Source of the DNA: Bacilli bacterium
Lineage (GTDB): Bacteria; Bacillota_I; Bacilli_A; RF39; UBA660
Direction: 5' to 3'
Assembly (NCBI GenBank): GCA_017416535.1
Contig: JAFQCG010000003.1
Coordinates: 132,911-196,910, forward strand
Length of the DNA stretch: 64,000 nt
Positions 6,639 through 48,380 of this stretch are shown one piece after another. The notes beneath the pieces are model-generated. The model had not been told where the DNA came from and searched no databases. It saw only the letters and a list, made by a program, of their open reading frames with translations. Both the position numbers and the translations under genes were made by a program. How positions within the stretch are numbered: position 1 is the stretch's first letter; each line of letters opens with the position of its first letter.

Positions 6639-7262
6639 ATGGAATTTATAGAAGAAATTAAAATATTAGAAAATACATTTAGAAGCAAAGAAACATATTT
6701 AACATACATAGGAAACACAGATGTACTACTTACTGCAGTACATACAATGGATCAACTAAAAGAAGATGGTACATTTAAATTTGAAGAATTCTATACAAAA
6801 GCAATTGCTAGATATGTTGCGGCAAAAACAGATTCATCTTATTTTGTAAAAATAAAAGACACAAATATAGATTCTAATTCACTAGTAACAGATGATTTTA
6901 AAGAACAACTGTTAAACTACATTGAAGAAAATAATATTAAGTTAATTATTGATATCCATGGTGCTAAAGAAGAAAGAGATTTTGATGTTGAACTTGGAAC
7001 ATTAAATAATATTTCTGCTGACTATTCATCAATAAAAGAACTTGAAGATGCATTTAAAGAAGTAGGAATTACTAAAGTACAATATAATAATCCATTTAAA
7101 GGAGGAGGAATTACCCAAACTATATTCGCAAATACCAATATAGATGTAATACAAATAGAAATAAATGGAAAATATCGTAATATTGATGAACCGGAGAAAA
7201 TAGAAAAAATTTGTAAAGCACTTATTAACTTTATAAAAATGTATAATAATATTGTAGACTAA
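6639..7262 (+). CDS. hypothetical protein (possible N-formylglutamate amidohydrolase-fold hydrolase)
   Basis: 207 aa, IDIHGA motif; weak assignment. Confidence 0.3.
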   Translation: MEFIEEIKILENTFRSKETYLTYIGNTDVLLTAVHTMDQLKEDGTFKFEEFYTKAIARYVAAKTDSSYFVKIKDTNIDSNSLVTDDFKEQLLNYIEENNIKLIIDIHGAKEERDFDVELGTLNNISADYSSIKELEDAFKEVGITKVQYNNPFKGGGITQTIFANTNIDVIQIEINGKYRNIDEPEKIEKICKALINFIKMYNNIVD

Positions 7263-7266
7263 TGGA

Positions 7267-8961: not shown

Positions 8962-8982
8962 TAAACTTTTGTTATTAACATA

Positions 8983-9011
8983 TTGACAAAAACACAAAAG
9001 TATAGTATAAT
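8983..9011 (+). promoter_or_regulatory. sigma-A promoter
   Basis: TTGACA (8983-8988), 17-nt spacer, TATAAT (9006-9011). Confidence 0.5.
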
Positions 9012-9017
9012 TATAAC

Positions 9018-9141
9018 CATGTTGAGAGGGAGTAGTCCTTAAATGTTATAGTACGTCATCGTGGAAATATAAACCCGTATTATAAAAAGTATTAAAAGTT
9101 TGGACGAGACTTTTACATTAATGTAAGAGTCTCGTTTTTTT
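9018..9141 (+). ncRNA. approximately 120-nt structured leader or small RNA ending in a strong intrinsic terminator
   Basis: Promoter directly upstream. Hairpin acgagacttttacattaatgtaagagtctcgt (9104-9135) plus T7. The downstream ORF starts 108 nt later with no obvious second promoter. Confidence 0.3.
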
Positions 9142-9248
9142 GTTTTTAGAAACACTTACAAATGTAAAATATTCCTCTCTGCAGCAAGTGTTATGAACAA
9201 AATGTAAAAAACAAATAATATTTTTTAAAACAAAGGGAGGAATATTTT

Positions 9249-9839
9249 ATGATGAAAGAAATAGTTTTAAAAAGTTGTAGACCAGAAGAATATGGAGATG
9301 AAGTAGTAACTTGTAGAGTTATTGAAAACAAAGATATCAACGCATATCTTGCAACAATACCTGAAGAAAAAAGAGTACGTGCAACAAAAGTAGCTCCAGT
9401 TGAAGCTAAGCCTGGTACAGTTGGAGAGGTAATTCACACAGTTTTATTAACTGAAAGAGATGGTAAAACTTACATTATTCACGAAGAAGATGGAACAGTT
9501 GGAGAACGTGAAATTGATGGACAAATGTATCCTGATGTAGTAGTTACAAACATTCACTCAACTTCAAACGAACAATATGTTGTTAAAGCCAACAAATTCG
9601 CAAATATGTATGTAATTAACGAAGATGGAACTTTCACACCACAACCAGATGAAAGAGAATTAGTACAAGTAGATGAAGATATTATTATCATGACAGCATG
9701 GGGATCAGAAGCAGTATGCTTAAAAGGATCATATATCGTAATCTATAATGCAGAAGAAAATGACTTCAACACAATTGAACAAGGTGCCATGAAATCTACA
9801 TATAAAGTGTCTACTCCAAAAACAAAAAAATTAAGCTAA
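9249..9839 (+). CDS. conserved hypothetical protein
   Basis: 196 aa, RBS aagggagg, higher GC than neighbours, no recognisable domain. Confidence 0.5.
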   Translation: MMKEIVLKSCRPEEYGDEVVTCRVIENKDINAYLATIPEEKRVRATKVAPVEAKPGTVGEVIHTVLLTERDGKTYIIHEEDGTVGEREIDGQMYPDVVVTNIHSTSNEQYVVKANKFANMYVINEDGTFTPQPDERELVQVDEDIIIMTAWGSEAVCLKGSYIVIYNAEENDFNTIEQGAMKSTYKVSTPKTKKLS

Positions 9840-9850
9840 CACTAATAAAA

Positions 9851-9880
9851 AAAGAGTATCAAATGATACTCTTTTTATAA
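9851..9880. terminator. bidirectional Rho-independent terminator between convergent genes
   Basis: aaagagtatc-aaat-gatactcttt hairpin flanked by A- and T-runs. Confidence 0.6.
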
Positions 9881-10696
9881 TTCAATTTTTACACTTACTT
9901 CTTCTTCTAACATTTCTGGATTTTGTAAGATATGACTAAGCATCTTAATTGACTTAGCAAAGTAAATTCCATCAGCAATTCTCTCATCTAAAGTAAATCC
10001 AATATCAACAAATGTCTTGCCATCTTCTTCATGCATAACTCCAACTGTTGCTACAATTGAATTAGTTCCATAATTATTTAAATGATGGTAACAACAATTA
10101 GCTTTAACGCTACCTAAATTAGAAAGCATTACAGTGGTAAAGTTAATATCTCCATCACTTAAAAAACTAGGAAGAATTCCATGATAATCTAACCATCTAA
10201 CTAAACTCATTACAAAATTTAGTAACCATCTTGGAAACTTAGTAACAATTCCTAAAATATCATTCATTCCATTTGAATTATCTTTTCTTGTTTTAGAAAC
10301 AATTTCTAATATTTTATTACTAATACTATTTAAATTCATTTCATTTTTTATATCTAAAATAATAAGTCTTTCTTCAGCATTATCCTCTAATTTATTCTTC
10401 GCAACAAAACCAAATAATATATTCTTTCTATCATAATATCTTTGTCCAGAAATATATCTATTAAGTAAAGGTCTATTATAAATGGTTTTTGCCAAAGCAG
10501 TAATAATCGCATGAAATAGAGTAGCCTTTTCATGTTTTTCCTTACCTTTATTAATCTTTTCTAAATACTTAAGTAAGTTTGTTACATCAACTTTTTCAAC
10601 ATAATAAACTTCTGCTTCAGTTCTTTTTTTCATTAAAAATGGCATAATACCATGAACTGAATCAACTTTTTTTACTCTCACACTATCTTTTCTCAT
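9875..10696 (-). CDS. CoA-dependent acyltransferase-fold protein (2-oxoacid dehydrogenase E2 catalytic-domain-like)
   Basis: 273 aa. LDERIADG aligns to the E2 DHRxxDG motif, but with His replaced by Glu. Confidence 0.4.
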   Translation of the reverse strand: MRKDSVRVKKVDSVHGIMPFLMKKRTEAEVYYVEKVDVTNLLKYLEKINKGKEKHEKATLFHAIITALAKTIYNRPLLNRYISGQRYYDRKNILFGFVAKNKLEDNAEERLIILDIKNEMNLNSISNKILEIVSKTRKDNSNGMNDILGIVTKFPRWLLNFVMSLVRWLDYHGILPSFLSDGDINFTTVMLSNLGSVKANCCYHHLNNYGTNSIVATVGVMHEEDGKTFVDIGFTLDERIADGIYFAKSIKMLSHILQNPEMLEEEVSVKIEL

Positions 10697-10853
10697 ATAT
10701 ACTCCTCATATACGTAAATTTTATCATTAAATTACGTTCGAAACAAGTGTAAAATAAAACGTAAATGTATTGTAAATTTTACATATTCATAAAAATTAGA
10801 TATAAAACTATGATAAACTATAATAGAAATAAAATAGAAGAGGAGTCTTAGTT

Positions 10854-11441
10854 ATGAGAATAGGAATCGACATAGATGATACAATTACAAACTCATATAA
10901 AGAGATTTTTGAACAAATAGGTAAATACTACAACGTAAATAGTTATTATTTAATTGAAGAAGGATATAAATACGAAGATGTATCAAAAGATGAAGTAAAC
11001 TTCCCAGGTTATAATAATTTCTGTAGAACAGTAGTAGAAAACTTACTTAAAACAGTTTCACTAAAACATGGTGCCAAAGAAATGATCAAAAAATTACAAG
11101 AAGAAGGCAATGAAATTATTTTAATTACCGCAAGAGACTATCAAGAATTTTCTTCTCCATATGACCTAACAAGACAATTCTTAAAAGAAAATGATATTCC
11201 ATATGATAAATTATATGTAGGAATAAAACAAAAAGGTAGATTCTGCAAAGAGAAAAATATAGATGTCTTAGTAGATGATAGTATTACTCATTGTAAATCT
11301 GCTAAAGAAAATAATATTCCACATTTACTTTTAGATAATACATTTAATAGAGATAATAAAGAATTAGATAGAGTATATGGTTGGTATGATGCCTATAATG
11401 CGCTACATAACTTAAAAGAAGTAAAAATGCAAGAATCCTAG
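10854..11441 (+). CDS. HAD-superfamily 5'(3')-deoxyribonucleotidase-like hydrolase
   Basis: N-terminal IGIDIDDTIT (DxDxT) HAD motif I, 195 aa. Confidence 0.5.
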   Translation: MRIGIDIDDTITNSYKEIFEQIGKYYNVNSYYLIEEGYKYEDVSKDEVNFPGYNNFCRTVVENLLKTVSLKHGAKEMIKKLQEEGNEIILITARDYQEFSSPYDLTRQFLKENDIPYDKLYVGIKQKGRFCKEKNIDVLVDDSITHCKSAKENNIPHLLLDNTFNRDNKELDRVYGWYDAYNALHNLKEVKMQES

Positions 11442-11455
11442 ATTCTTGTTTTTTA
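11430..11455 (+). terminator. Rho-independent terminator
   Basis: caagaatc-ctag-attcttg hairpin plus T6. Confidence 0.55.
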
Positions 11456-11502
11456 TATGAAAATAAGTTATAATATAGCACATTAAAGAAAGGGACTAAT
11501 CT

Positions 11503-12435
11503 ATGCCAATTATTGAAAAAGAAGAACTAGCAAGTAATTTAATAAATGGAAGATATATTCATTATACAGATTGTTATAGTTTTCAAAGACTATATCCTTT
11601 TTGCAATGAAAATGTATCTGGTTATCTAGATTTTTTAGATTTAGATGGTAAATCATTACTAACAGTTGGTTCATCTGCAGATCAAACAATTTGCGCAGTC
11701 ACAAGAGGATGTAGAGATATAACTGTACTAGATATTTGTCCTTTTACAGAAGAATACTTTTATTTGAAAAAATCAGGAATACTAACTTTACCTAAAGAAG
11801 ATTTTGAAAGAGTTCTATTTTACGATGACTACCCACGTACATTTAAACAAAATAAAGACCCTTTTGCCTTGGAAAAATATCCAAGACTACTTCAACAGTT
11901 AAAGAAAGAAAGCGAATCTTCTCATAATTTTTGGTTATCTTTAACAAAAAGTTACAGTGGAGAAATGATAAGAAAAAATCTATTTACAAATGACGAGGAA
12001 AATCCTAAAGTTACAAGATATCTTACGGACTATTTAAAAAGTGAAAGTGCATACTACGAAACAAGGAAAAAATTAAAAGATATAAGACCAACATTTATGA
12101 TTGAAAATATAACACATAGGATTCCTGTAGAAAGAAAATTTGATAACATTGTTCTTTCTAATCTAACAACTTATTTATCTCATGAACAAATAGCTGAATT
12201 ATTAAAAAATCTTATTCCTCATCTTGAAGAAGGAGGAAGGATTATTCTTGGATATATGTATAGAACAAATGAATTTTCTATTTATTGCAAAGAATGGGAT
12301 GATATATATAATATCGAAAGAATAAAATCAATTGACCCAAATATTGAACTAAAAACATTTAGGGGAGTAAAAGGTGTCTTACACGACATGGACAGTATGA
12401 AAGATGCTGTATATGTTTATCAAAAGAAAAAATAA
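11503..12435 (+). CDS. hypothetical protein, class I SAM-methyltransferase-like fold (DUF3419/BtaA-like?)
   Basis: 310 aa. LLTVGSSADQ ... VLDICP ... FDNIVLSNL ... GGRIILGY resemble MTase motifs I, II, IV. Confidence 0.3.
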   Translation: MPIIEKEELASNLINGRYIHYTDCYSFQRLYPFCNENVSGYLDFLDLDGKSLLTVGSSADQTICAVTRGCRDITVLDICPFTEEYFYLKKSGILTLPKEDFERVLFYDDYPRTFKQNKDPFALEKYPRLLQQLKKESESSHNFWLSLTKSYSGEMIRKNLFTNDEENPKVTRYLTDYLKSESAYYETRKKLKDIRPTFMIENITHRIPVERKFDNIVLSNLTTYLSHEQIAELLKNLIPHLEEGGRIILGYMYRTNEFSIYCKEWDDIYNIERIKSIDPNIELKTFRGVKGVLHDMDSMKDAVYVYQKKK

Positions 12436-12467
12436 TTTATGATATAATACATAATAGAGGTGATTAT

Positions 12468-13682
12468 ATGAAACATATAGTAATAGTAGGTGGAGGAGCA
12501 TCTGGATTAATTTCTGCAATACATGCTAAAACTTCAAATAATAAAGTTACAGTTTTAGAAAGAAATTCTTCTTGTGGTAAGAAAATTCTTGCAACAGGAA
12601 ATGGAAAGTGTAATTATTGGAATATAGATCAAAATATAAAACATTATCATAGTAACAATGAAGAATTATTAGAACAAATAATCACTAAAGAAATGCAAGA
12701 TAAAGTAATTAATTTCTTTAATAGTCTTGGAATAGTACCAAAAATAAAAAATGGTTATTATTATCCATTTTCAAATCAAGCAACAACAATAAAAAATGCT
12801 TTACTAAATGAAGTAAAGAAAAAAGATATTGAAATAAGACAAGACTTTTTAGTAGAAAGTATTGAAAAAGAAGATAATCACTTTATAATTAAAAGTTCAA
12901 ATGAAATTATAAAAGCTGACAAAGTAATTATCGCAACAGGATCTTGTGCATCACCAAAAACAGGATCAGATGGAATTGGATATAAACTATTAAAAAGATT
13001 ATCTCATACAGTAATTGAACCTAAACCAGCATTAGTTCAATTAAAAACAACAGGTAATTTCTTAAAAGAATGGGCAGGAATAAGAACTGATGTAAAAGTA
13101 TCATTATATGAAAATGATAAATTAATAAAAGAAGAATCTGGAGAAATTCAATTAACTGATTATGGAATAAGTGGTATATGTGTATTTAATTTAAGTAGAT
13201 ATGTATCAATTGGATTAGAAAAAAATTTAAATGAAGAAGTAATGATTAACTTCCTACCATTTATAGAAAAAAATCCATATGAATATCTAACAAATTTATT
13301 AAAAAATAATTATTCAGTAAAAACACAATTGGAAAACATATTAAATAATAAATTAGTAACAGTTATCTTAAATAAAACTAATATTGATGAAAACAAATCA
13401 TTTAATAATCTAAGAGAAGATGAAAAAGTAAGATTAATAAATAACTTAATCTCTTTTAAAGTAAAAGTAATTGGAACAAACTCTTTTGATCAAGCTCAAG
13501 TATGTTCTGGAGGTATACCTCTAACTGAAATAGATCTAACTACAATGGAATCTAAACTTGTTAAAGGTTTATATATAGTTGGAGAATTACTTGATGTAGA
13601 TGGTGATTGTGGTGGTTATAACTTAGGTTTTGCATGGATGAGCGGTATTAAAGCAGGAATTGGATGTAGTGAAAATGATTAG
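12468..13682 (+). CDS. BaiN/HI0933-family NAD(P)/FAD-dependent oxidoreductase
   Basis: N-terminal IVIVGGGASGL Rossmann motif; 404 aa HI0933-like architecture. Confidence 0.75.
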   Translation: MKHIVIVGGGASGLISAIHAKTSNNKVTVLERNSSCGKKILATGNGKCNYWNIDQNIKHYHSNNEELLEQIITKEMQDKVINFFNSLGIVPKIKNGYYYPFSNQATTIKNALLNEVKKKDIEIRQDFLVESIEKEDNHFIIKSSNEIIKADKVIIATGSCASPKTGSDGIGYKLLKRLSHTVIEPKPALVQLKTTGNFLKEWAGIRTDVKVSLYENDKLIKEESGEIQLTDYGISGICVFNLSRYVSIGLEKNLNEEVMINFLPFIEKNPYEYLTNLLKNNYSVKTQLENILNNKLVTVILNKTNIDENKSFNNLREDEKVRLINNLISFKVKVIGTNSFDQAQVCSGGIPLTEIDLTTMESKLVKGLYIVGELLDVDGDCGGYNLGFAWMSGIKAGIGCSEND

Positions 13683-15243
13683 AATAAGACAAATAAAAAT
13701 ACCAATATTAAATGAACAAACACTACATGATAAAATAGCAAAACAATTAAAAGTAAATAAACAAGATATAAAAAATATAACTATAATCAAAAAATCACTT
13801 GATGCAAGAAAAAAAGATAATTTATTTTATGTTTTTGAAGTTGATGTAGATATAAAAAATGAAGAACAAATTTTAAAAAACAATAAATCAACTGATATAT
13901 TTAAAACACCAAATGAAGAATATATTTTTCCTAAAGTAAAAAAAGATATTAAACCAATAATTGTAGGAACAGGTCCAGCAGGATTATTCGCTGCCTATAT
14001 TCTTGCAGAAAATGGTATTAAACCTTTAGTAATTGAAAGAGGAGAAAAAGTAGAAGAAAGAGTAAAAACAATTGAAACATTTTGGGAAACAGGAAAACTA
14101 AATCCAGAATCAAATGTCCAATTTGGTGAAGGAGGAGCAGGAACATTTTCTGATGGAAAATTAAATACTCTTGTTAAAGATAAAGCATTTAGAGGTAAAA
14201 AAATATTTGAAATATTTGTAGAAAATGGCGCACCAAAAGAAATAATGTATGAGAATAAACCTCATATAGGAACAGATATATTAAGAAAAGTTATTGTTAA
14301 TATGAGAAATAAAATTATTTCTATGGGTGGAGAAATCCTATATAATACAAAACTAACTAATATTAATATCCAAGATAATAAACTTGTAAGTATAGAAGTA
14401 AACGACACCCAGACAATACCATGTAATGACTTAATACTTGCAATAGGTCATAGTGCTAGAGATACATTTAAAATGTTATATGAAAAAAATGTATCTATGT
14501 CAGCTAAATCATTCGCCGTAGGAGTTAGAATAGAACATCCTCAAGAAATGATAAACATAAGTCAATACGGAGAAAAGTATTATAAATATTTACCACCAGC
14601 AAGTTACAAATTAACATATACAACAAAAGAAAATAGAGGAGTATATTCATTTTGTATGTGCCCCGGAGGATATGTAGTAAATGCTTCATCTGAAGAAAAT
14701 AGATTAGTAGTAAATGGAATGAGTAATTACAAACGTGATACTAAAAATGCTAATAGTGCTTTAGTTGTCACAATATCACCAAAAGACTTTGGAGAACATC
14801 CTCTTTCAGGAATAGAATTTCAAAGAAAATTAGAAGAATTAGCCTATATAAATGGTAATGGAAAAATTCCTCTACAATTATATGAAGACTATAAATTAAA
14901 TAAAGCAACTGAAAAATTAGGAACATTTACTCCAGTGACAAAAGGTAATTATAAATTTTCAAATTTAAATGAAATATTTCCAGAGTACATAAATAATTCT
15001 CTAAAAGAAGCAATTGAATATTTTGGAAATAAAATATCAGGATATAATAGAAATGATGCAATTCTTCTTGGAGTAGAAAGTAGAACATCATCACCAGTCC
15101 AAATAAAAAGAGATGAAAATGGACTATCAAATATTGAGGGTTTATATCCATGTGGCGAAGGGGCTGGATACGCTGGAGGAATTACGACAGCTGCAATGGA
15201 TGGCCTAAAAACAGCTGAAAATATAGTGAATAAGTATATATAA
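13660..15243 (+). CDS. FAD-dependent dehydrogenase (COG2509-like)
   Basis: 527 aa, IIVGTGPAGLFAA FAD motif; overlaps the upstream gene by 23 nt. Confidence 0.7.
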   Translation: MDVVKMIRIRQIKIPILNEQTLHDKIAKQLKVNKQDIKNITIIKKSLDARKKDNLFYVFEVDVDIKNEEQILKNNKSTDIFKTPNEEYIFPKVKKDIKPIIVGTGPAGLFAAYILAENGIKPLVIERGEKVEERVKTIETFWETGKLNPESNVQFGEGGAGTFSDGKLNTLVKDKAFRGKKIFEIFVENGAPKEIMYENKPHIGTDILRKVIVNMRNKIISMGGEILYNTKLTNINIQDNKLVSIEVNDTQTIPCNDLILAIGHSARDTFKMLYEKNVSMSAKSFAVGVRIEHPQEMINISQYGEKYYKYLPPASYKLTYTTKENRGVYSFCMCPGGYVVNASSEENRLVVNGMSNYKRDTKNANSALVVTISPKDFGEHPLSGIEFQRKLEELAYINGNGKIPLQLYEDYKLNKATEKLGTFTPVTKGNYKFSNLNEIFPEYINNSLKEAIEYFGNKISGYNRNDAILLGVESRTSSPVQIKRDENGLSNIEGLYPCGEGAGYAGGITTAAMDGLKTAENIVNKYI

Positions 15244-15247
15244 TAAG

Positions 15248-15277
15248 GGAACTTGGAACTACTCAAGTTCTTTTTTA
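15248..15277 (+). terminator. Rho-independent terminator
   Basis: ggaacttg...caagttc hairpin plus T6. Confidence 0.55.
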
Positions 15278-15280
15278 TTT

Positions 15281-15309
15281 GACAAAATCGAACATTTGTG
15301 GTATAATGT
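15281..15309 (+). promoter_or_regulatory. sigma-A promoter with extended -10
   Basis: TTGACA, 17-nt spacer, tgg TATAAT. Confidence 0.5.
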
Positions 15310-15339
15310 GTACACTCATATGGATAGGGGGTAGGTAGT

Positions 15340-17133
15340 ATGAGTAAACTAAGATTAAATAAACAAGGATTAATAGCTTTATTATTAGCAGGAACAATGA
15401 CAGTGTCAGGTTTAATATTTCTTTTACAAAAAGATGATACACCTGAAGTAACTATTGAAAACGGAATTGGATATACAGATATAAACCCACTTTATAACTG
15501 GAATGTAAATCCAGAAGATTTCGTATTATTAGATATTGGAGATCACAATTCAGTTGAAACACACTTCCAAGATAAGAAAATGAAGATGTGTAATGAACAA
15601 GATATTTCATTAGGTGTTATTATTTCAAGTGATGCATCTGATGAAGCTAGTATCTATGATGACGTTGAATATGTTAAAAGTATCGTAAGAGATTATGATG
15701 TTGACTTTCCTGTTTACTTAAATATCGATAGCATTGTTACAAATGATGATTTAAACAATGAAATGAAAACAAAGCTTATTAAAGACTTCTTAGAAAAATG
15801 TTCTGCCAATAATATTTATGTTGGAATACATGGTACTGATACTAACCTATGCCGTGTAAAACAATATTGTAATATTACTGGTTATGATGCATTAGTAGTT
15901 AAAGAAAAAGAAACAATTGACTATGATGGACCATATAATGTATATCAAGAGTTAGATGGTACATTAGTTGCTAAAGAAAATATTGCAGAAGTAATTAACA
16001 AAAAAGATTTAAATGATTCTAAAGGTTTTGCTAGTGATGGTTCATATACAATTTCTTCTGAATCAGAACTTACTGATGTTGCATTACGTTATGGAATGAG
16101 TGTAAATGAAATATTAGAGTTCAATGGAATGAAGAAAAAAGATATTGTAGAAAACACAGTATTAAGAATTCCATCATTAATTGATACAACTGTACCAAAA
16201 GGAGATGTAACATATGAACAATTATCAACTCCAATTAGAGGTTGTGATATGTCATATGCTCAAGGTACAGATATTAAATGGGAAGTAATGCCAGATTATT
16301 TCGATTTCTTAATTTTAAGAAGTAATATAGGTTTAACAGAAGATGACTGTTTTGCAACAAATGCAAAACAAGCTGCTTTAGCAAACATACCAATGGGAGC
16401 TTATTGTTATAATTCATTTAGTTCTGATGACTTTGATAGTAGTGAAGAATTTATTAAAAAACAAGAACAACAAGCAGATTATACAATTTCAGTGTTAAAG
16501 AATAAAAAAGTAGAATTCCCAGTATATTTAGATGTTGAAGGAAAAGTAGATTCTACAACTTATAAAAAAGAAGATGTTCAAGCTATGCTTGATGTATGGG
16601 TAAATAAAATGACTACTTCTGGATATATTCCAGGATTATATTGTAACCAATCTACATTTAGATACTTACAAAGTTGTGTAGATTATGATCTATCTGAAAG
16701 ATTAGAAATTTGGGTAGCAGGTGGAGTTAAATATTCATCAACTGAAGGAGATTGTTCTAAACATAACCATGTTGATATTGAAAATGTATCAGCAAACGAA
16801 GTTATGGATAGCTTATCAGTTAAAGCCCCAATTGTTCAATATACAAATATAGCTAAAGTAACAACAACAGAAAATGGAGAAAAAACAGTTGTTGCAGGTG
16901 ACTCAAGAGACCACTTAGATATTAATTATAGTACAGTTGACTATTCTAGCCAAGAATATACATCAGATGCAAAAAATACATTTGATATTAAAGACTTTGA
17001 TAGAATTGATGGAGAACTATGGTTATATGGTTTACTTGGAGCAGGAGCTGTAGTTGGAGGAACAGTTATTGCTGCTAATATAATTGGTGCTAAAAAAAGA
17101 AAACAAACACCAAAAGTAAAATCCAAAAGATAA
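15340..17133 (+). CDS. cell-wall hydrolase-like protein: N-terminal signal anchor, LysM domain, GH25 muramidase domain, C-terminal TM helix with basic tail
   Basis: LysM: YTISSESELTDVALRYGMSVNEILEFNG. GH25: GCDMSYAQGTDIKWEV ... GAYCYNSF. C-terminus: GLLGAGAVVGGTVIAANIIGAKKRKQTPKVKSKR. Confidence 0.6.
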   Translation: MSKLRLNKQGLIALLLAGTMTVSGLIFLLQKDDTPEVTIENGIGYTDINPLYNWNVNPEDFVLLDIGDHNSVETHFQDKKMKMCNEQDISLGVIISSDASDEASIYDDVEYVKSIVRDYDVDFPVYLNIDSIVTNDDLNNEMKTKLIKDFLEKCSANNIYVGIHGTDTNLCRVKQYCNITGYDALVVKEKETIDYDGPYNVYQELDGTLVAKENIAEVINKKDLNDSKGFASDGSYTISSESELTDVALRYGMSVNEILEFNGMKKKDIVENTVLRIPSLIDTTVPKGDVTYEQLSTPIRGCDMSYAQGTDIKWEVMPDYFDFLILRSNIGLTEDDCFATNAKQAALANIPMGAYCYNSFSSDDFDSSEEFIKKQEQQADYTISVLKNKKVEFPVYLDVEGKVDSTTYKKEDVQAMLDVWVNKMTTSGYIPGLYCNQSTFRYLQSCVDYDLSERLEIWVAGGVKYSSTEGDCSKHNHVDIENVSANEVMDSLSVKAPIVQYTNIAKVTTTENGEKTVVAGDSRDHLDINYSTVDYSSQEYTSDAKNTFDIKDFDRIDGELWLYGLLGAGAVVGGTVIAANIIGAKKRKQTPKVKSKR

Positions 17134-17140
17134 TCTTGAA

Positions 17141-17166
17141 AACTATTCGAAAGAATAGTTTTTTTG
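17141..17166 (+). terminator. Rho-independent terminator
   Basis: aactattc-gaaa-gaatagtt hairpin plus T5. Confidence 0.6.
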
Positions 17167-17196
17167 TGTTACAATTATAAAAGAAAGAGGTGGACT

Positions 17197-18138
17197 ATGG
17201 AATTAGTAAAAGATATATATGAAGCAAACTGTATAACTCATAGTGGTACAATGCATGCAGATGACATATTCTCAACAGCATTTTTAGATTTATATTTAGG
17301 AAATGTTAAAGTCTTTAGAACAACAAATATTCCACTGGATATAGATAAAAATGTAATTATATATGATCTTGGAAGAGGTAAGTTTGATCATCATCAAGAT
17401 GACGCCCTTAAAAGAGATAACGGAATTACATATTGTGGATTTGGACTATTATGGAAAGAATTTGGAAGAGACTTCCTAGAAAAAAGAAATATTGAAAAAG
17501 TCGAAGAAGTATTTAATGCCTTTGATAAAGATTTCATAGAAGCAATAGATGCTGATGATAATGGAGTGTTTCCTAAAATAGATGCACCATATAAAGTGAA
17601 AACACTAAGTGAAGTATTTAAATTATTTAATCCAGGGTATAAAAGTGGTCAAAATGAAAATGATCAATTTAAAAAAGCAGTGTCTTTTGCAAAAGCAATT
17701 ATTGAAGAAGAACTATTAAGTGTAATAGGAAAAGTTATTGCAAAAGAACAAGTTTTAAAAGCATTAGAAAAAAAAGAAAATCATGCTTTATTTTTAGATG
17801 AATATATGCCATATGAACAAACTGTTCTGCAAGAAGAATCAGCAAATGATGTATATTTTGCAGTATATCCTTCAAATAGAGGAGGGTATGGAATAAAAAC
17901 AATTCCTATATCACAAGAAGATCATACAAAAAGATTAGACTTTCCAGCTAGTTGGGCAGGATTAGTCGATCAAGAACTAGAAAATGTGTCTGGAATAAAA
18001 GGATTAAGATTTTGTCATGCAACAAGATTTTTAGCAACATGTGATACATTAGAAACAGCTAAACTTGTAATAGAAAAAACATTAAATGAGTCAAATGACT
18101 GTCCACAAAGTGAAAATTCACTTGATAATCTAATATAA
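17197..18138 (+). CDS. MYG1 family (UPF0160) metal-dependent hydrolase
   Basis: HSGTMHADDIFSTAF N-terminal motif. Start placed at the ATG at 17197, after RBS aagaaagaggtgg. Confidence 0.7.
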   Translation: MELVKDIYEANCITHSGTMHADDIFSTAFLDLYLGNVKVFRTTNIPLDIDKNVIIYDLGRGKFDHHQDDALKRDNGITYCGFGLLWKEFGRDFLEKRNIEKVEEVFNAFDKDFIEAIDADDNGVFPKIDAPYKVKTLSEVFKLFNPGYKSGQNENDQFKKAVSFAKAIIEEELLSVIGKVIAKEQVLKALEKKENHALFLDEYMPYEQTVLQEESANDVYFAVYPSNRGGYGIKTIPISQEDHTKRLDFPASWAGLVDQELENVSGIKGLRFCHATRFLATCDTLETAKLVIEKTLNESNDCPQSENSLDNLI

Positions 18139-18195
18139 AAAATATATAATTTAGTACGTAAGCAAACAGAACAACTTGCAAGAAAAACAGAAGAG

Positions 18196-18789
18196 GTGTA
18201 TTCATTAATGTATTATAAGAATTTATATAGAAAAGAAATGATTAAAAACTTTATAATAATAGGAATTATTTTATTTGTTGCAGTATTCTCAACATATCAT
18301 ATATATTATGCATTTAGTAATACTGAGGAAATTGATTATAGTTCAACTTCTTTAGATATTACATTTCATGAAGAAACAGGAGAAGAATTAGATATAACAA
18401 AAATAACTCCATTAACAGACTCTGTAGGATTATCATCAAAAGGACACTCTATTACAATAACAAATAATCTAACAGAAGAAGTTAATTATAAGATAAAAAT
18501 AGTTGATAACGAAAAGAAAATGCAAGAACAAAATTGTGTAGGAATAACAATTCCACGTGAAGAAATCAGAGTATCAATTAAACAGTCTGGAGAAGAAACA
18601 GAAGTGTACAAATTATCTGATTTAGAAGATGGTGTAATTCTTTCGACAAGAGCAAAAGCTTTAGAAGAAGAAAAGTACACAATTAGAATATGGGTAAATA
18701 ATGAAACATCTCTACCAAGTGGAAGTAAACATCATTACCATGGACTAATTCAAGTTGTTGAAAATGATACAACTGTAGCAGTTAGATAG
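18196..18789 (+). CDS. hypothetical N-terminally membrane-anchored protein
   Basis: 197 aa, one N-terminal TM helix; the start may be the internal Met (MIKNF). Confidence 0.35.
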   Translation: MYSLMYYKNLYRKEMIKNFIIIGIILFVAVFSTYHIYYAFSNTEEIDYSSTSLDITFHEETGEELDITKITPLTDSVGLSSKGHSITITNNLTEEVNYKIKIVDNEKKMQEQNCVGITIPREEIRVSIKQSGEETEVYKLSDLEDGVILSTRAKALEEEKYTIRIWVNNETSLPSGSKHHYHGLIQVVENDTTVAVR

Positions 18790-18800
18790 GAAGGTGCAAT

Positions 18801-19286
18801 ATGGATATAGATTTAAGTTTATTACATAGTGGTACAATTCCAGAAATAGATATAACAAATACTTATACCCTTACAAAAGAGTATTATGAAAATACTGGAG
18901 TATTAGAATTAAAAGATATAGAAGTTGAAGGAAAAATATATCGTGGTGCAGCGGAAGACGAAATAGACGAATTCCAAGATTACATTAATTGTAAAATAAC
19001 AGGAACAATGATTATTGAAGATTCTATATCATTAGAACCAGTAGAATACCCATTTTCAGCAGAATATGATGATATTCTTGAAGAAAATTGCAAAAAAAAC
19101 GAAAATACACTTGATATATTCCAGTTTTTGTGGGAAAATATTGTACTAGAGATCCCCTTACAGTTTACTAAGGTTAAAGATCTCAGTAAATTTCATGGGG
19201 ATGGATGGAAACTAATTAGAGAAGATGAGTTAACAAATTCTAATAATCCATTTAGTGATTTATTAAAAGATTTTAAAGAGGAGTGA
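18801..19286 (+). CDS. yceD: YceD/DUF177 family protein (large-subunit ribosome accumulation protein)
   Basis: 161 aa, acidic, immediately upstream of rpmF as in other Firmicutes. Confidence 0.65.
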
Positions 19287-19290
19287 TAAT

Positions 19291-19500
19291 ATGATGAAAT
19301 TAGACATTCAATTATTCGCAGTTCCTTTCCGTAAGGTTTCAAAAACAAGAAAGAGAATGAGAAGAAGTCACAATGCTATGGAAGTTCCTGGTATGGCAAA
19401 ATGTCCTAGTTGTGGTGAAATGGTAAAACCACATAGAGTTTGTCCAAAATGTGGAAACTACAAAGGAAATAAAGTAGTAGAAGTAAAAGAAGCAGAATAA
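19291..19500 (+). CDS. rpmF: 50S ribosomal protein L32 with a 9-residue N-terminal propeptide ([15 protein letters not shown])
   Basis: [20 protein letters not shown] ... CPSCGE ... CPKCG is canonical L32. RBS aaagaggag 7 nt before the first ATG; no alternative start downstream. Confidence 0.85.
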
Positions 19501-19513
19501 TGCTTCTTTTTTT
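19487..19513 (+). terminator. Rho-independent terminator
   Basis: aagaagcag-aataa-tgcttctt plus T-run. Confidence 0.6.
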
Positions 19514-19583
19514 GTTATATTCTAGACAACAAATTAATAAAATGATAAACTTAAATAGATAGTATAAAAGATAGGTGAAGTAA

Positions 19584-21782
19584 ATGAAAACCAGAAAAAA
19601 TCAAAAAGGATTTACCTTAGTAGAATTGTTAGTTGCTATATCAATATTAGGTCTTATTATGGTAATCGCAATACCTCAAATAAGTAATATTCAAACAAGT
19701 AACAAAAATACTAAATATAAGAAATATGCAGAGTCAATGATAACGAGTGCCAAACTATATACAGATTCATATACTCAAGATATGTTTGGAAATAATCAAA
19801 GCGGATGTGTAGATATTCCATATGAAGATATGAAAGACAAAGACTTACTAAAGGATTTTAAACTAGAAGGTTCAACTTGTAACCATCCAGGTAAGACTTT
19901 TATTCGTGTAAGAAAAGCCAACGACCACTATCTATATCAATCATCAATTTATTGTACAGATAAATCCGGAAAAGTTGTTTATGATAAACAATTATCTGCA
20001 ACAGGATGTGATGATAAACCAGATACAAAAGGCCCTACAATGACAATAGATGCTGCACCAACTGCATGGTCTAAAGGTGTAGGTGTAAAAGCAACAGTAA
20101 GAATTTGGGACGAATACGGAATGCTTGAAAATATAAAAATCAAACTTGTTTGGACAAAAGAAGGAGCAGAAGTAGGTACACCAGTAGAATATAATTTTAA
20201 AAATAAAAGATATGCAGCATCAACTTCATCAACTGCATTAACATATTCAATAGAAGTGCCTCAAAATGCAACAGGTCAATATATTTTAAAAGCAATACCA
20301 GTAGATGTCAGAGATTCAGTTGGAAATTATCAAAAGAATACTGTTCAATCAGGAGCATTTAAATTAGATAATACAAAACCAAGAGTAACAGGAACAACAA
20401 ATGACAGTAATAGTCAATGGACAAATAAAGATGTAACTATTACAGCAACAGGTGCAGATGATCATTCTGGAGTAAAACAAATTTATTATTACTATTCTGC
20501 AGATAATAAACTAAAAGATTGGAATGAAGATAATAAAGAATCAGTTAAAGGAATTTGGTCAGCTCAAAGAAATAATGAAGCGTTTATAATTGTAGAAGAT
20601 GCAGTAGGAAATTTCTCAGAACCAGTATCTGCAGGACATATAAAAATCGACAAAACAAAACCAACTGTAGGTACAGTTACAAATGATAGTGATAGTAAAT
20701 GGGTAAATAGAAATGTAGTTATTACAGCAACAGCCTCAGATACAGGTGGATCTAAGTTAGAAGGAATATATTATTACTATAATGATGATTCAACAAATAG
20801 AAATGACTGGGACTCAGGTAGTACAATATCTTCTGTAACCGGAACATGGGGAGCAGAAAGAAACAATACAGTATCAATTATTGCTAAAGATAATGCTGGT
20901 AATGTATCAGATGCAGCATCAGCTGGTTCAGTTAAAATAGATAAAACAAAACCGGTAATTAGTAGCATTTCAAATCCAAAAAACAATACTCCTACAGTTC
21001 CAGGGCTAAAAGTAACTTTAACTGGAGGAGATTCAGGAACATACCAATCAGGAATTGCTAAATGGAGATATCATTATCCAAATCAAGACTGGTCTGATAT
21101 AAGTAATTCAAACTATTCTCCATATGTAGATACATTTACAGCGCTAAGATCGGCAACAACAACATATTACAGTTTATGTGATATAGCGGGAAATTGTTCA
21201 GATGCATCAACAACAATTGTACACATTGTATCAGCATGTTCTTCAACTACAACAACTTGGTCAGGAACATGGACAACATGTACAAAAAAATGTGGAACTG
21301 GAACGCAAACTCAATCAGGTACAAAATATAGTACTTACACAGGTGAAAATTGTGGAACAACAAGTAAATCACAAAATTGTGAAACACAAGAATGTTGTAG
21401 TAAAGTAACGTATACGGATGGAGATAAATGTAGTGCTGATTGTGGTGGAGGAACAAAAAACAGACTAGCTTATTCATATTATGATGGTTCAAGATGTTCT
21501 TCCAAAGACACTGATACAGGAGGAGCTGCATGTAATACCCACACTTGTGGACCTCCATCACATACACATAAAACATCATTATTAGGAGATGTTTTACATA
21601 AGTGTGGACATCATTTATCATGTGGTACAACTCACTCAACAGCACACTGGGGATATTGTGGAGTATGTTATAACTATGGTAAAGTTTATCGTTCTGACAC
21701 GTACTCGCATTGTCCAGGAAAGAACCTAGATGGATGTAAATGGTGGAATACTTCATATCCAACATCTGTAAAAGGTTATTAA
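19584..21782 (+). CDS. giant type IV pilin-like protein (ComGC-type class III signal peptide) with Ig-like repeats and a C-terminal TSP1-like Cys/His-rich region
   Basis: MKTRKNQKG|FTLVELLVAISILGLIMVIAIP (G|F cleavage site, Glu+5). Two tandem approximately 100-aa repeats marked by KIDKTKP / KLDNTKP. C-terminal TWSGTWTTCTKKCGTGTQTQ. Confidence 0.65.
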   Translation: MKTRKNQKGFTLVELLVAISILGLIMVIAIPQISNIQTSNKNTKYKKYAESMITSAKLYTDSYTQDMFGNNQSGCVDIPYEDMKDKDLLKDFKLEGSTCNHPGKTFIRVRKANDHYLYQSSIYCTDKSGKVVYDKQLSATGCDDKPDTKGPTMTIDAAPTAWSKGVGVKATVRIWDEYGMLENIKIKLVWTKEGAEVGTPVEYNFKNKRYAASTSSTALTYSIEVPQNATGQYILKAIPVDVRDSVGNYQKNTVQSGAFKLDNTKPRVTGTTNDSNSQWTNKDVTITATGADDHSGVKQIYYYYSADNKLKDWNEDNKESVKGIWSAQRNNEAFIIVEDAVGNFSEPVSAGHIKIDKTKPTVGTVTNDSDSKWVNRNVVITATASDTGGSKLEGIYYYYNDDSTNRNDWDSGSTISSVTGTWGAERNNTVSIIAKDNAGNVSDAASAGSVKIDKTKPVISSISNPKNNTPTVPGLKVTLTGGDSGTYQSGIAKWRYHYPNQDWSDISNSNYSPYVDTFTALRSATTTYYSLCDIAGNCSDASTTIVHIVSACSSTTTTWSGTWTTCTKKCGTGTQTQSGTKYSTYTGENCGTTSKSQNCETQECCSKVTYTDGDKCSADCGGGTKNRLAYSYYDGSRCSSKDTDTGGAACNTHTCGPPSHTHKTSLLGDVLHKCGHHLSCGTTHSTAHWGYCGVCYNYGKVYRSDTYSHCPGKNLDGCKWWNTSYPTSVKGY

Positions 21783-21797
21783 AAGAGGTGAATACAT

Positions 21798-22262
21798 ATG
21801 AAAAAAGCAAATATATTTGTAATAATTGTATTAATTCTAGGTATTGGATTAATCGCAGCTGGAATGTTTGTAAAAGTAGATAAAAAAGGAGAAGAAAGAG
21901 ATCCCCTAGAAAATAAAGAAGGATATATCTATGGAGATAAATATATTGATGATTATAAAGAAATTGGTTCTAAAGCTCTAACTAAAGATCAAATATTTGA
22001 TAAAATTAAGTACACACAAAATCACTTATCAACTACATCAGATGAATTCGCAACATTTACTTCAGTAATTTATAACCAAACAGGAGAAAATATAAAATTA
22101 CAAAAATTAGAAATTGACTTCTACGATGCAGAAAAAAAACTAATCGCAACAATGCCAAGTGAAATAGAAAATCTTTCCCCAGATGCAAGCACTGTAATAT
22201 TTGGAATAGTTGAAAAAAATCTTACAAAAGCAGATTCATTTATCGTAAGACAAGTACAATAA
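21798..22262 (+). CDS. small N-terminally membrane-anchored protein, partner of the pilin-like gene
   Basis: 154 aa, single N-terminal TM. Starts 13 nt after the pilin stop and is followed by a terminator. Confidence 0.4.
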   Translation: MKKANIFVIIVLILGIGLIAAGMFVKVDKKGEERDPLENKEGYIYGDKYIDDYKEIGSKALTKDQIFDKIKYTQNHLSTTSDEFATFTSVIYNQTGENIKLQKLEIDFYDAEKKLIATMPSEIENLSPDASTVIFGIVEKNLTKADSFIVRQVQ

Positions 22263-22287
22263 AAGAGTGAATTATCACTCTTTTTTA
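22262..22287 (+). terminator. Rho-independent terminator
   Basis: aaagagtga-atta-tcactcttt plus T6. Confidence 0.6.
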
Positions 22288-22344
22288 ATGCTTAAAAACT
22301 TGCTACCAAAACTAATAAATTATATAATAAAAGAAGGTGATATA

Positions 22345-27873: not shown

Positions 27874-29100
27874 ATGGAACATAATAGAAAACAAAAATTA
27901 TTAATGATTATTGCATTGGTAGTAGGAATTGCATCTTTATCTGTAGGTTTCGCAGCATTTTCAACAACACTAAATATTTCATCAAGTGCAAGTGTAACAC
28001 CAAGTAGTGCGGATTTTGCAGTAAAGTTTTCAACTAGTCAAACTAGTTTAGTAACAGATGCAGTAGTACATTCAAGTAAAACAACCGGTATAACTACAAC
28101 AAATGGAACAATAGTAAATAGTGTTTCACCAACTCTTTCAAATTTATCAGCAAGTTTTACTAGTCCAGGACAATATGTAGAATATACTGTATATGCAAGA
28201 AATGAAGGAGAGTATACTGCTTACTTAAATAATATTAATTATATAGGAGATAAAACATGTATTACATCATCTGGTACAACAGAATCTTTAGTTCAAAGTG
28301 CATGTAATTCAATAAATATAACAGTAACAATTGAAAATACAACATATGATGATACAACACCAATTTCTTCTCATGCCTTAGCAAAAGGAGCAAGTGAAAC
28401 AATAAAGGTAAGATTAGAATATGCAGAAAATGGAACAGCAGTAGATGGATCATTTAAAATAACATTCCCAAGCATTTCACTAGTTTACTCAACAATAGAT
28501 AATTCATCAATGGATGGAAAAGTAGTAAGAGTAGTAAGTGGAGATATAAATACACCTGGTAGTGTAGTTGCGATAGGAAATGAGCAATTCTATGTATTTG
28601 ACAAAGAAAATGGAAATGTAAAATTACTTTCTATGTATAATCTAAGAGTTGGAAACAGTGTAGACGAAGAATGGAACGTAACACCACTAACAAACACAAC
28701 TGGAATACAAGATAGTGAAGCAAGAGGATATGTAGATGGAGAATTTCCATTTATAGGAACAACAGCATTTTCAAATACAAATTCAACTTACTCGGGAAGT
28801 ATAGTAGAGGGATACGTAAATAACTATAAAACATATTTAACAAACATGGGAGTAGATATCTCATCAGCAAGATTAATAAAAAAGGCAGAACTTGAAAAAT
28901 TAGGATGCAACGAAGACGATTATAGTTGCAGTGACGCTCCAAGTTGGGTTTACTCAACTTCATATTGGTCGGGGTCGGCCCGTGATGCTGACTTTGTGTG
29001 GAGTGTGATTAGTTATGCGGGCTTTGTCGACAGCGACTCTAACCGTGATGACGACGTCGGCGTGCGTCCAGTTATAGAAATCTCTGAATCTATTTTCTAG
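27874..29100 (+). CDS. secreted protein with a TasA/SipW-cognate-like signal peptide and a C-terminal DUF1566 (Lcl C-terminal)-like module
   Basis: N-terminus LSVGFAAFSTTLNISS. C-terminus YWSGSARDADFVWSVISYAGFVD ... GVRPVIEI. The C-terminal 130 nt are markedly GC-rich. Confidence 0.45.
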   Translation: MEHNRKQKLLMIIALVVGIASLSVGFAAFSTTLNISSSASVTPSSADFAVKFSTSQTSLVTDAVVHSSKTTGITTTNGTIVNSVSPTLSNLSASFTSPGQYVEYTVYARNEGEYTAYLNNINYIGDKTCITSSGTTESLVQSACNSINITVTIENTTYDDTTPISSHALAKGASETIKVRLEYAENGTAVDGSFKITFPSISLVYSTIDNSSMDGKVVRVVSGDINTPGSVVAIGNEQFYVFDKENGNVKLLSMYNLRVGNSVDEEWNVTPLTNTTGIQDSEARGYVDGEFPFIGTTAFSNTNSTYSGSIVEGYVNNYKTYLTNMGVDISSARLIKKAELEKLGCNEDDYSCSDAPSWVYSTSYWSGSARDADFVWSVISYAGFVDSDSNRDDDVGVRPVIEISESIF

Positions 29101-32225: not shown

Positions 32226-32254
32226 ATCCCCACATATTGAAAAGGGGGATAAAA

Positions 32255-33229
32255 ATGGAGTTTATTGTACTAGATTTAACAACAGCAACCGAAGAACAAA
32301 TAAAAGCTGCAATTGACTGTAACAATAGAACATCTCGTTTAATGCAATCAGAAATCGATAAATTACGTCGTGTAGCTGAAACTGTCAAAAAAAGTAAAAA
32401 ACCAATTATTATTCAAGTAGAACCTCAAGAAGAAAAGAAAGAAACAGAAATAATTGATGAAGACTTTGAAAATGAGGTTGAATATTATTTATCACAACTA
32501 AAAGAATTAAAAAATTCTAATATTGATGATGAGTTTGAAACATCAATACCATCTCGTATGCACTATCAGTATGAAAGAATCTTGACTCGTTTAAAACTAG
32601 AATCAATAAGACTTATTAAAGAAATTAAAGATTTGTTAGCTGAGGAAGGCTTATCTTTAGAAGATATGAATGCTTTTAAAGAAGAATTAGATTTAGAACT
32701 AAAGAAAATCGAACTAATTAATAAAGCATTAGAACCAGTAAAAGAAGAAGAGCAAGCCTCTACTAAAAAAGATAATAAATTAATATTTGTACCAACATCA
32801 GGTGGAGATATAAGAGTACTAGATGAAATTGATTCTATACCATACGAATATTACGATCGTTTCCTAGGACTATTCCAATCAATAAAAGATGGTACATTTA
32901 AAAATGTTCAAAGATTCACAGGTAATAATGAACTTAATGGTTTATGTGAAGTAAAAGACTTTAAAGTACGTGTAATTTTTGTAAGATTAACAAAAGATTC
33001 TTATGCAATAATATCAGCGTTTACTAAAAAGTCTGATAATGATAAAGCTTATCGTGCTGCAGTAATAAAAAAATATAATGACTTCCAGATAGCAGAATCA
33101 TCATTAAGAAAAAATATACAAAATGAAGAATTCTTAGAACTACATAAGACATATGAAACAGAATTATTTGAAAAGTTATCACCTACAACTAAAACACCTG
33201 TTTTAAAGAAGAAAGGTGGTGAAGTATAA
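32255..33229 (+). CDS. coiled-coil/acidic N-terminal region fused to a C-terminal Gp49/HigB-like (RelE/ParE superfamily) toxin domain
   Basis: C-terminal TFKNVQRFTGNNELNGLCEVKDFKVRVIFVRLTKDSYAIISAFTKKSDNDKAYRAAVIKKYNDF matches the Gp49 pattern L.G..LWELR...YRV.Y.....IVLLHAF.KK. TAATG overlap with the next gene. Confidence 0.45.
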   Translation: MEFIVLDLTTATEEQIKAAIDCNNRTSRLMQSEIDKLRRVAETVKKSKKPIIIQVEPQEEKKETEIIDEDFENEVEYYLSQLKELKNSNIDDEFETSIPSRMHYQYERILTRLKLESIRLIKEIKDLLAEEGLSLEDMNAFKEELDLELKKIELINKALEPVKEEEQASTKKDNKLIFVPTSGGDIRVLDEIDSIPYEYYDRFLGLFQSIKDGTFKNVQRFTGNNELNGLCEVKDFKVRVIFVRLTKDSYAIISAFTKKSDNDKAYRAAVIKKYNDFQIAESSLRKNIQNEEFLELHKTYETELFEKLSPTTKTPVLKKKGGEV

Positions 33230-48361: not shown

Positions 48362-48380
48362 GAATATAAGGAGGATAATT

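Follow-up and report, generated by a model that had tools for sequence, protein, structure and literature searches.

Why would a type IV prepilin signal stand at the start of a 732-residue protein, and what is the small membrane protein encoded directly behind it? The question is raised by a 64,000-nt stretch of the genome of a Bacilli bacterium (lineage RF39, UBA660; assembly GCA_017416535.1, contig JAFQCG010000003.1, positions 132,911 to 196,910), hereafter the window, in which a two-gene cassette encodes this giant prepilin, here termed W1, and a 154-residue membrane-anchored partner. We propose that W1 would be a minor or tip pilin processed by the prepilin peptidase PilD, presenting an arm of immunoglobulin (Ig)-like modules and thrombospondin type-1 repeats (TSRs) with a polymorphic adhesive tip, and that the partner would serve as a membrane-tethered helper specific to that tip, a composite reading that we regard as evenly poised between right and wrong. 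The cassette and the modules of W1, which were delimited by family profiles and by an AlphaFold2 (AF2) model with its predicted local distance difference test score (pLDDT), are laid out as follows, in window coordinates.

19485 to 19510, + strand: intrinsic terminator of the upstream yceD-rpmF unit (10-bp stem, then a T-run), the 5' boundary of the cassette.
19523 to 19551, + strand: candidate promoter-like site, TAGACA-17-TAAACT with an extended TG, matched by consensus scan only.
19584 to 21782, + strand: W1, giant modular type IV prepilin gene, 732 aa.
19584 to 19610, + strand: class III leader MKTRKNQKG, residues 1-9, with predicted PilD cleavage after Gly9 (N_methyl, TIGR02532, conservation of G-1).
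19611 to 19769, + strand: α1 helix of the pilin module, residues 10-62 (AF2 helix 12-62; profile matches in the PDB run through the helix).
19770 to 20027, + strand: small β-sheet head, residues 63-148, with conserved C75, C99, C124 and C142 (AF2 strands; cysteine conservation).
20028 to 21233, + strand: four tandem Ig-like β-sandwich modules, residues ~149-264, 265-357, 358-454 and 455-550 (AF2 pLDDT 90-97).
21234 to 21548, + strand: two TSRs, residues ~551-604 and 605-655 (family repeat profile against the PDB; AF2 pLDDT ~80).
21549 to 21779, + strand: type-A Cys/His-rich tail, residues 656-732, the polymorphic tip (Cys/His count; family-restricted matches).
21798 to 22262, + strand: cognate partner, 154 aa, with an N-terminal transmembrane (TM) anchor, a disordered linker and a seven-strand β-sandwich ectodomain.
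22261 to 22290, + strand: hairpin and T-run, the terminator of the two-gene cassette, directly after the partner stop codon.

The flanking terminators, the promoter-like site and the Shine-Dalgarno sequences (GGTGA about 8 nt ahead of the W1 ATG, and a further one before the partner gene) identify the cassette as a predicted independent, self-contained transcription unit. W1 itself begins MKTRKNQKG, followed across the predicted cleavage site by FTLVELLVAISILGLIMVIAIP, and in mature numbering F1, E5, G14 and P22 (F10, E14, G23 and P31 of the precursor, with G-1 corresponding to G9) form the canonical type IV pilin pattern. The N-terminus scores above the curated cut-offs of both Pfam N_methyl PF07963 (38.4 bits, cut-off 21.2, E=7e-10) and TIGR02532 (30.1 bits, cut-off 16.3), and across a family alignment of 89 sequences F+1, T+2, L+3 and E+5 are invariant, with G-1, G14 and P22 present in at least 90%. 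A profile of the N-terminal 150 residues retrieved 20 PDB sequences at E<0.05, all of them type IV pilins or pseudopilins (Geobacter PilA-N, MshA, Streptococcus sanguinis PilE1, Thermus PilA4/5, the PAK and gonococcal pilins, GspG and PpdD), in sequence matches that reach only through α1. Beyond that point we relied on the AF2 model of W1, which was built on the family alignment (mean pLDDT 82.8) and in which the two elements that define the pilin fold, an α1 helix of ~50 residues and an antiparallel β head, are both predicted, the head comprising strands 73-79, 106-112, 115-125 and 131-135 (helix and head pLDDT 71-90, strands 81-90).

Distal to the pilin module the model features four β-sandwiches between residues ~150 and 548, predicted with high confidence (pLDDT 90-97); by sequence the same region yields a weak OmpL47-type match. 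A Foldseek search with the full-length model returned only generic arrays of Ig, FN3 or MG domains (complement C3, contactin, GhpA) and nothing informative for head or tip. Of the last 80 residues 7 are Cys and 9 are His; among 1.84 billion representative proteins this tail has only 4 relatives at E<1e-10, each located C-terminally in a protein of 620-820 aa. An earlier note on this DNA, made from the letters alone, had described a class III signal with a G-F cleavage site, Glu at +5 and a hydrophobic helix, followed by Ig-like tandem repeats and a Cys/His-rich tail, with AlphaFold modelling of the downstream region as a check, and all of this agrees with the present results; it had also placed an N-anchored protein of 154 aa and then a terminator downstream, which stands, at a spacing of 13 nt, which has to be corrected to 15 nt.

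The two small modules between the Ig-like stalk and the tail escaped that description. Searched alone, W1 reaches only 18.3 bits against Pfam TSP1_spondin, below the cut-off of 41; a profile built from 25 repeats of the family, unit 1 of W1 among them, matches human thrombospondin-1 in the PDB at E=7.7e-17 with positions 2-49 of its 52 aligned, then F-spondin, properdin, MIC2, CSP, ADAMTS and C6, and nearly all remaining matches are TSR proteins. Relatives of W1 carry precomputed PF00090, PF19028 and PF19030 matches, and 58 of the 121 large members of the family contain TSR units, as many as seven in a single protein. On this profile evidence the two W1 modules are assigned as genuine TSRs, homologous to those of eukaryotes. 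They resemble the repeats of thrombospondin-1, F-spondin, properdin and the TRAP/MIC2/CSP adhesins in their six cysteines, in the CSxxCGxG core and in aligning over the full repeat, but are bacterial and pilin-borne, have a partly degenerate Trp/Arg ladder (WSGTW...GTQTQ) and lack an O-fucosylation or C-mannosylation context. In animals and apicomplexans TSRs are adhesion modules (PMC3417536).

Combining the IPR012902 motif with at least one domain foreign to type IV pili, W1 is a modular pilin as defined by Raynaud et al. 2021. Over 1,200 proteins with 264 different architectures have been catalogued in that class, and among the architectures N_methyl+TSP1+TSP1 (IPR012902-IPR000884-IPR000884) is listed once in Dataset S1 (PMC8179133), and the earlier view that a modular extension of this kind is uncommon has to be given up, the class being already described and widespread. 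Its studied representatives in S. sanguinis are PilB, in which a vWA module grafted on the pilin module is presented by the pilus and is adhesive, and PilC, which bears a lectin module (PMC8179133). W1 shares with these proteins the class III motif and small pilin module as carrier of functional modules, the monoderm host and a predicted role in adhesion; it differs in being much longer, with seven added modules instead of one, in being encoded outside any pilus operon with several paralogues per genome and tandem arrays, and in having a polymorphic tip co-inherited with a dedicated downstream membrane protein, which is not described in that survey.

The family to which W1 belongs is large: homologues at E<1e-3 number more than 360, nearly all of metagenomic origin and mostly from gut, and many have precomputed TSP1-family Pfam matches. 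Metagenome contigs also encode the identical protein, and of three such contigs two derive from SRR125290xx runs; representatives of related species, deposited as "MAG: Bacilli bacterium", come from goat and water-deer colon. (A scan of metagenome contigs with the family alignment was dominated by generic pilins matching the N-terminal helix only and yielded nothing usable.) At the rpmF-addB site, where the window has one cassette, related loci L004 and L093 have two each and L092 at least four, the latter as a tandem array (7133-19748) encoding pilin and partner pairs of 771 and 150, 793 and 152, and 818 and 158 aa, then a fourth pilin of 1042 aa. Ahead of the first L092 cassette lies an orphan gene for a partner-like N-anchored protein of 142 aa. 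L094 carries two cassettes elsewhere, after polC; at L094 13508-13808 what is left of a pilin N-terminus (matching W1 residues 5-43 at 51% identity) precedes a 53-aa ORF resembling a partner C-terminus, and judged from these fragments the segment looks like a decayed third cassette. Among distant members, a small membrane protein is encoded directly 3' of the pilin in L096 (N-anchored) and L099 (polytopic), and none directly 3' in L008 and L009. The L099 member, an 821-aa protein at 10001-12795 in a spore-former, lies between spoIVB-like and spoIIGA/sigE-like genes, and its downstream gene, 14 nt 3', encodes a polytopic protein of 104 aa that is not of the N-anchored type.

Among the C-terminal tails of the family at least eight Cys-rich types can be told apart, none related to another. 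When 12 cassettes from six loci were compared in all pairs, related tails (E<1e-20) were accompanied by related partner ectodomains (E<1e-29) in 9 of 9 pairs, and none of the 57 other pairs reached either level. W1 and the first L094 cassette, for example, match at 123 bits in the tail and 128 bits in the partner with only 35% N-terminal identity, as do the first L004 and second L094 cassettes (tail 141 bits, partner 170 bits, N-terminal identity 27%); conversely, the second and third L092 cassettes share 94% N-terminal identity and have unrelated tails and unrelated partners. Across the 12 cassettes the type of tail and the type of partner co-vary perfectly, independently of the N-terminal carrier.

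Sliding-window comparison locates the change within the pilin gene. Identity between the second and third L092 pilins is 90-100% over residues 1-240, and between the two L094 pilins 65-82% over residues 1-620, and mosaic breakpoints divide the carrier from the distal part and the partner. In these alignments the N-terminal carrier is homogenised within genomes, and the distal part (in W1 from about residue 420) is, along with the partner, common to different genomes. Strain variation is likewise patchy: variant P0001 differs from W1 at 15-30% of residues in Ig4, TSR1 and TSR2 and at no more than 3% elsewhere, and in variant P0002 most differences fall in Ig2 and Ig3 (26-28%). Outside these patches, and in the tail as well, both variants are nearly identical to W1, a pattern typical of gene conversion that points to segmental recombination.

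For the partner, an AF2 model of mean pLDDT 84 features a TM helix (residues 4-24), a linker (25-48) and a β-sandwich (52-154, pLDDT >90). It has no significant Pfam match, and in NCBIfam only a sub-threshold one to an FxLYD domain (18.7 against 23 bits); it lacks cysteine and is therefore not an oxidoreductase. Its 23 homologues, each of about 150 aa and without a Pfam domain, lie 11-12 nt 3' of a giant pilin gene in the three of three cases looked up.

The only pilus machinery recognized in the window lies 25 kb downstream of W1, where the earlier note had put it:

46823 to 48361, + strand: PilC/GspF-type platform protein, 512 aa, with an N-terminal extension of ~110 aa (two Pfam T2SSF matches; T2SSF_N in relatives).
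48336 to 49148, + strand: prepilin peptidase with A24 domain and A24 N-terminal domain (PF06750, PF01478).

These two genes overlap by 26 nt and stand by themselves, flanked by tgt/yqfQ on one side and by a DnaB_2 replication gene on the other, an order (tgt-yqfQ-pilC-pilD-dnaB) that is kept, with no adjacent ATPase, in relatives down to 67-68% PilC identity. In several relatives PilC homologues lie on the same contigs as giant pilins (122,937, 128,541, 67,755 and 16,131 bp, as judged from matching contig sizes). The left flank of the window (L098) encodes a penicillin-binding protein, MraY and FtsW, and the right flank (L011) housekeeping genes. The window has ~27% G+C and encodes the peptidoglycan functions FtsW, GH25/LysM and BacA, so that the organism is a walled monoderm with a small genome.

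Within this setting we propose that the pilin module of W1 serves as the carrier of a long binding arm, with the four Ig-like modules as its stalk. The prepilin peptidase (48336-49148) would cleave W1 after Gly9. Through its α1 helix the mature protein would then be built, as a tip subunit or one of low abundance, into a type IV filament or a short pseudopilus assembled on the PilC-like platform, from where an arm estimated at ~25 nm would reach past the cell wall and the TSRs and tip could bind a host, food-particle or microbial ligand. Uniformity of the carrier within a genome presumably fits it to that genome's machinery, and the distal part and downstream gene would move between genomes as one. 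The 154-aa partner would be a tip-specific helper tethered to the external face of the membrane, its β-sandwich binding the cognate tip and holding or folding it before assembly, in the manner of SadB with the adhesin SadA; this helper role is the least certain step of the proposal.

A number of observations weigh against this proposal. The tail has a pLDDT of ~30 with no resolved structure in the model, and the tip belongs to none of the known ligand-binding families. Only 15 nt separate the coding sequences of tail and partner, so that linkage alone could account for part of their co-inheritance, and some of the matched pairs are positional orthologues (W1 and the first cassettes of L092 and L093 all follow rpmF); a graded test of tail against partner co-divergence among unrelated pairs gave a Mantel rho of 0.17 (Spearman, p=0.15), and since this is not significant the association is to be read as categorical only. 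As to a helper function, SadB, an inner-membrane lipoprotein of Salmonella that assists the trimeric autotransporter adhesin SadA (PMC3953254), is a fold-level analogy only, at 6% identity and high rmsd; unlike the W1 partner it is a trimeric lipoprotein of a diderm, encoded upstream, and assists a type Vc adhesin.

The remaining points concern the machinery. As the earlier note had said of the assembly ATPase, no T2SSE/PilB-type ATPase is found in the 64-kb window, whether by Pfam and NCBIfam searches of every ORF of at least 300 aa or by a six-frame Walker-A scan. In the window and ~20 kb of flank (L098, L011) there is no PilB/GspE-type ATPase, no PilM/N/O and no small major pilin, and none of these lies beside any family member or PilC homologue examined (no small conventional prepilin at any family locus). 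A Walker-A scan of all loci, in which the positive control L007 was detected, likewise found no assembly ATPase. At the loci examined giant pilin genes always stand among housekeeping genes and never in pilus operons. The search covered ~84 kb, ~6% of the ~1.39-Mb genome, and because neither ATPase nor small pilin was found in it, incorporation of W1 into a filament is a prediction only.

These same gene-content results favor the best surviving alternative, that W1 is processed and not polymerized: the class III signal would make it a PilD-processed membrane anchor, and the Ig-like/TSR arm a cell-bound stalk through the wall, with no pilus. Archaeal sugar-binding proteins with class III signals are an example of such anchoring. 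The scattering of giant pilin genes, the isolation of the PilC and PilD pair in every relative seen and a genome small enough to make loss of the machinery plausible all speak for it, and four Ig-like modules and two TSRs are by estimate long enough to span a Gram-positive wall. An invariant E5, however, is expected of filament-docking subunits and not of a mere anchor, and its invariance in the family favors docking over simple anchoring; E5, G14 and P22, positions that matter for the packing of the filament and the extraction of subunits, vary little or not at all in the 89 sequences, a full-length PilC is retained and well conserved (65-87% identity in relatives at a greater distance), for which it is difficult to account if nothing is assembled, and the gene-content negatives themselves rest on that small share of the genome. 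We consider an anchored stalk unlikely, if a serious contender.

A second alternative takes the cassette as a pilin-borne polymorphic effector/immunity or recognition system, in which the tip would be a small effector, antibacterial or for cell recognition, delivered on contact, and the partner the immunity factor that neutralizes it or a self-receptor that recognizes it. In CdiA-CT/CdiI, Rhs and LXG systems, as in the W1 family, a conserved N-terminus and a repeat stalk precede a variable C-terminus with a cognate small gene, and cassettes occur in tandem and recombine between lineages. The layout of polymorphic toxins, that is, a conserved N-terminal trafficking part, a variable C-terminus (here of at least eight unrelated types on a repeat stalk) and a co-varying adjacent gene whose class tracks that of the tail, is found here, with the caveat that tail and partner are adjacent. 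Further features would fit the same picture: cassettes that follow one another in arrays of as many as four or more, an orphan gene resembling those of partners, the remains of a decayed cassette, carriers homogenised within genomes and distal parts with partners common across them, as well as the small polytopic membrane protein of L099, of a type typical of bacteriocin immunity proteins. On the other side, no toxin domain and no PT-VENN, PT-HINT or PT-TG motif was recognized (Pfam/NCBIfam, E<=0.1), the tails are tiny Cys/His-rich modules of ~65-85 aa exclusive to this family, the partners are extracytoplasmic and membrane-anchored, TSRs and Ig stalks are features of adhesins, and the arrays consist of whole genes with no orphan tail-only cassettes. 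To our knowledge a pilin carrier is not a trafficking mode of any polymorphic toxin system, and the literature searched holds no precedent for a pilin-borne one.

The closest parallel in layout is VARTIG of Thermococcales (Makarova et al. 2021), a secreted multi-Ig protein with a hypervariable recombining C-terminus and small TM proteins encoded downstream, for which roles in conflict or self/non-self recognition were proposed and which its authors likened to polymorphic toxin systems (PMC8416519). Like VARTIG, W1 family members are large multi-Ig proteins at the 5' end of an operon with a variable C-terminus and a small TM protein 3'; VARTIG, compared here by layout, is unlike them in being archaeal, in carrying Sec-type signal peptides, in varying within a C-terminal Ig domain and in being followed by several genes. 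A pilin-displayed, swappable tip that intoxicates or recognizes neighbors would then be, in Gram-positive gut bacteria, a new trafficking mode for polymorphic toxin-like or kin-recognition systems and a bacterial counterpart of VARTIG, an idea we hold to be distinctly improbable on present analysis.

The last alternative, a ComG pseudopilus pilin of ComGC type with an acquired extension, as the earlier note's term "ComGC-type" implied, can be set aside as very improbable: the short leader, F+1 and E+5, a Bacilli-class monoderm host and ComGE as the best NCBIfam N-terminal match (37.4 bits, cut-off 49) speak for it, but the ComGC, ComGE and ComGF matches are confined to residues 5-59 and all fall far below their cut-offs (pilin_ComGC 25.5 bits against 75, over residues 7-59 only, W1 having 732 aa where ~100 are expected), no com operon of comGA/comGB type is present in the window, the platform protein matches TIGR02120 GspF end to end at 279 bits against 129 for ComGB (cut-off 240), ComGC is absent from the PDB matches of the N-terminal 150-residue profile, and genomes carry two to four or more paralogues with adhesin modules. 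With sub-cut-off Com matches and a GspF/PilC-type platform, the W1 N-terminus is a generic type IV signal.

Apart from W1, the window encodes a second cassette:

59210 to 61465, + strand: W2, a second giant prepilin of 751 aa, leader MKKINKKG followed by F, without TSP1 repeats and with a C-terminus different from that of W1.
61478 to 62281, + strand: W2 partner, an N-anchored protein of 267 aa, 12 nt 3' of W2 and unrelated in sequence to the 154-aa partner.

An alignment of W2 with W1, 483 columns long, gives 49% identity, which rises to ~63% in the first 270 aa. This cassette (59210-62281) lies between a UvrD-like helicase gene and a convergent gene for a MurJ/Polysacc_synt-type flippase, and W2 and its partner have an orthologous pair in L011. 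A likeness of the W2 partner to FliL was dismissed as N-terminal TM similarity only.

Several neighboring genes merit a brief record. Just upstream of yceD-rpmF, 18196-18789 encodes an N-anchored protein of 197 aa with weak Ig-like matches (MSP, Kre9_KNH), to which proteins of 193-194 aa correspond in position in L001, L004 and L092, and 15340-17133 encodes a 597-aa LysM and GH25 muramidase protein with hydrophobic segments at both ends, found upstream of the cassette in all close relatives. ORFs of 408, 330 and 634 aa (27874-29100, 32237-33229 and 33229-35133) belong to no Pfam or NCBIfam family, the 330-aa one having a weak Gp49/HigB-like match (E=6e-4). The M20 peptidase ORF at 5294-6049 begins at profile position 36, and on the related contig (L098 14601-15651) a separate 88-aa gene is called just 5' of it, so that this may be a split or frameshifted gene.

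Modular pilins show how simple filaments gain many functions, and few have been studied; the present family comes almost wholly from uncultured small-genome gut Bacilli/Firmicutes, whose surface structures are essentially uncharted. Its size, its restriction to uncultured gut Firmicutes, the presence of genuine TSRs on pilins and the tandem amplification at a fixed chromosomal site are new elements, as is the apparent evolution of pilin carrier and distal effector as separate units, and a dedicated membrane-anchored partner for each tip type is not described for pilins in the literature searched. Animal-type TSRs, genuine by profile, on a pilin of a ruminant gut symbiont point to adhesion directed at the host or at other eukaryotes. 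Should the partner prove to be a helper, the formation of very large pilins would gain a new accessory step; should it instead act as an immunity factor or receptor, polymorphic conflict or recognition systems of monoderms would have type IV pili as their vehicle.

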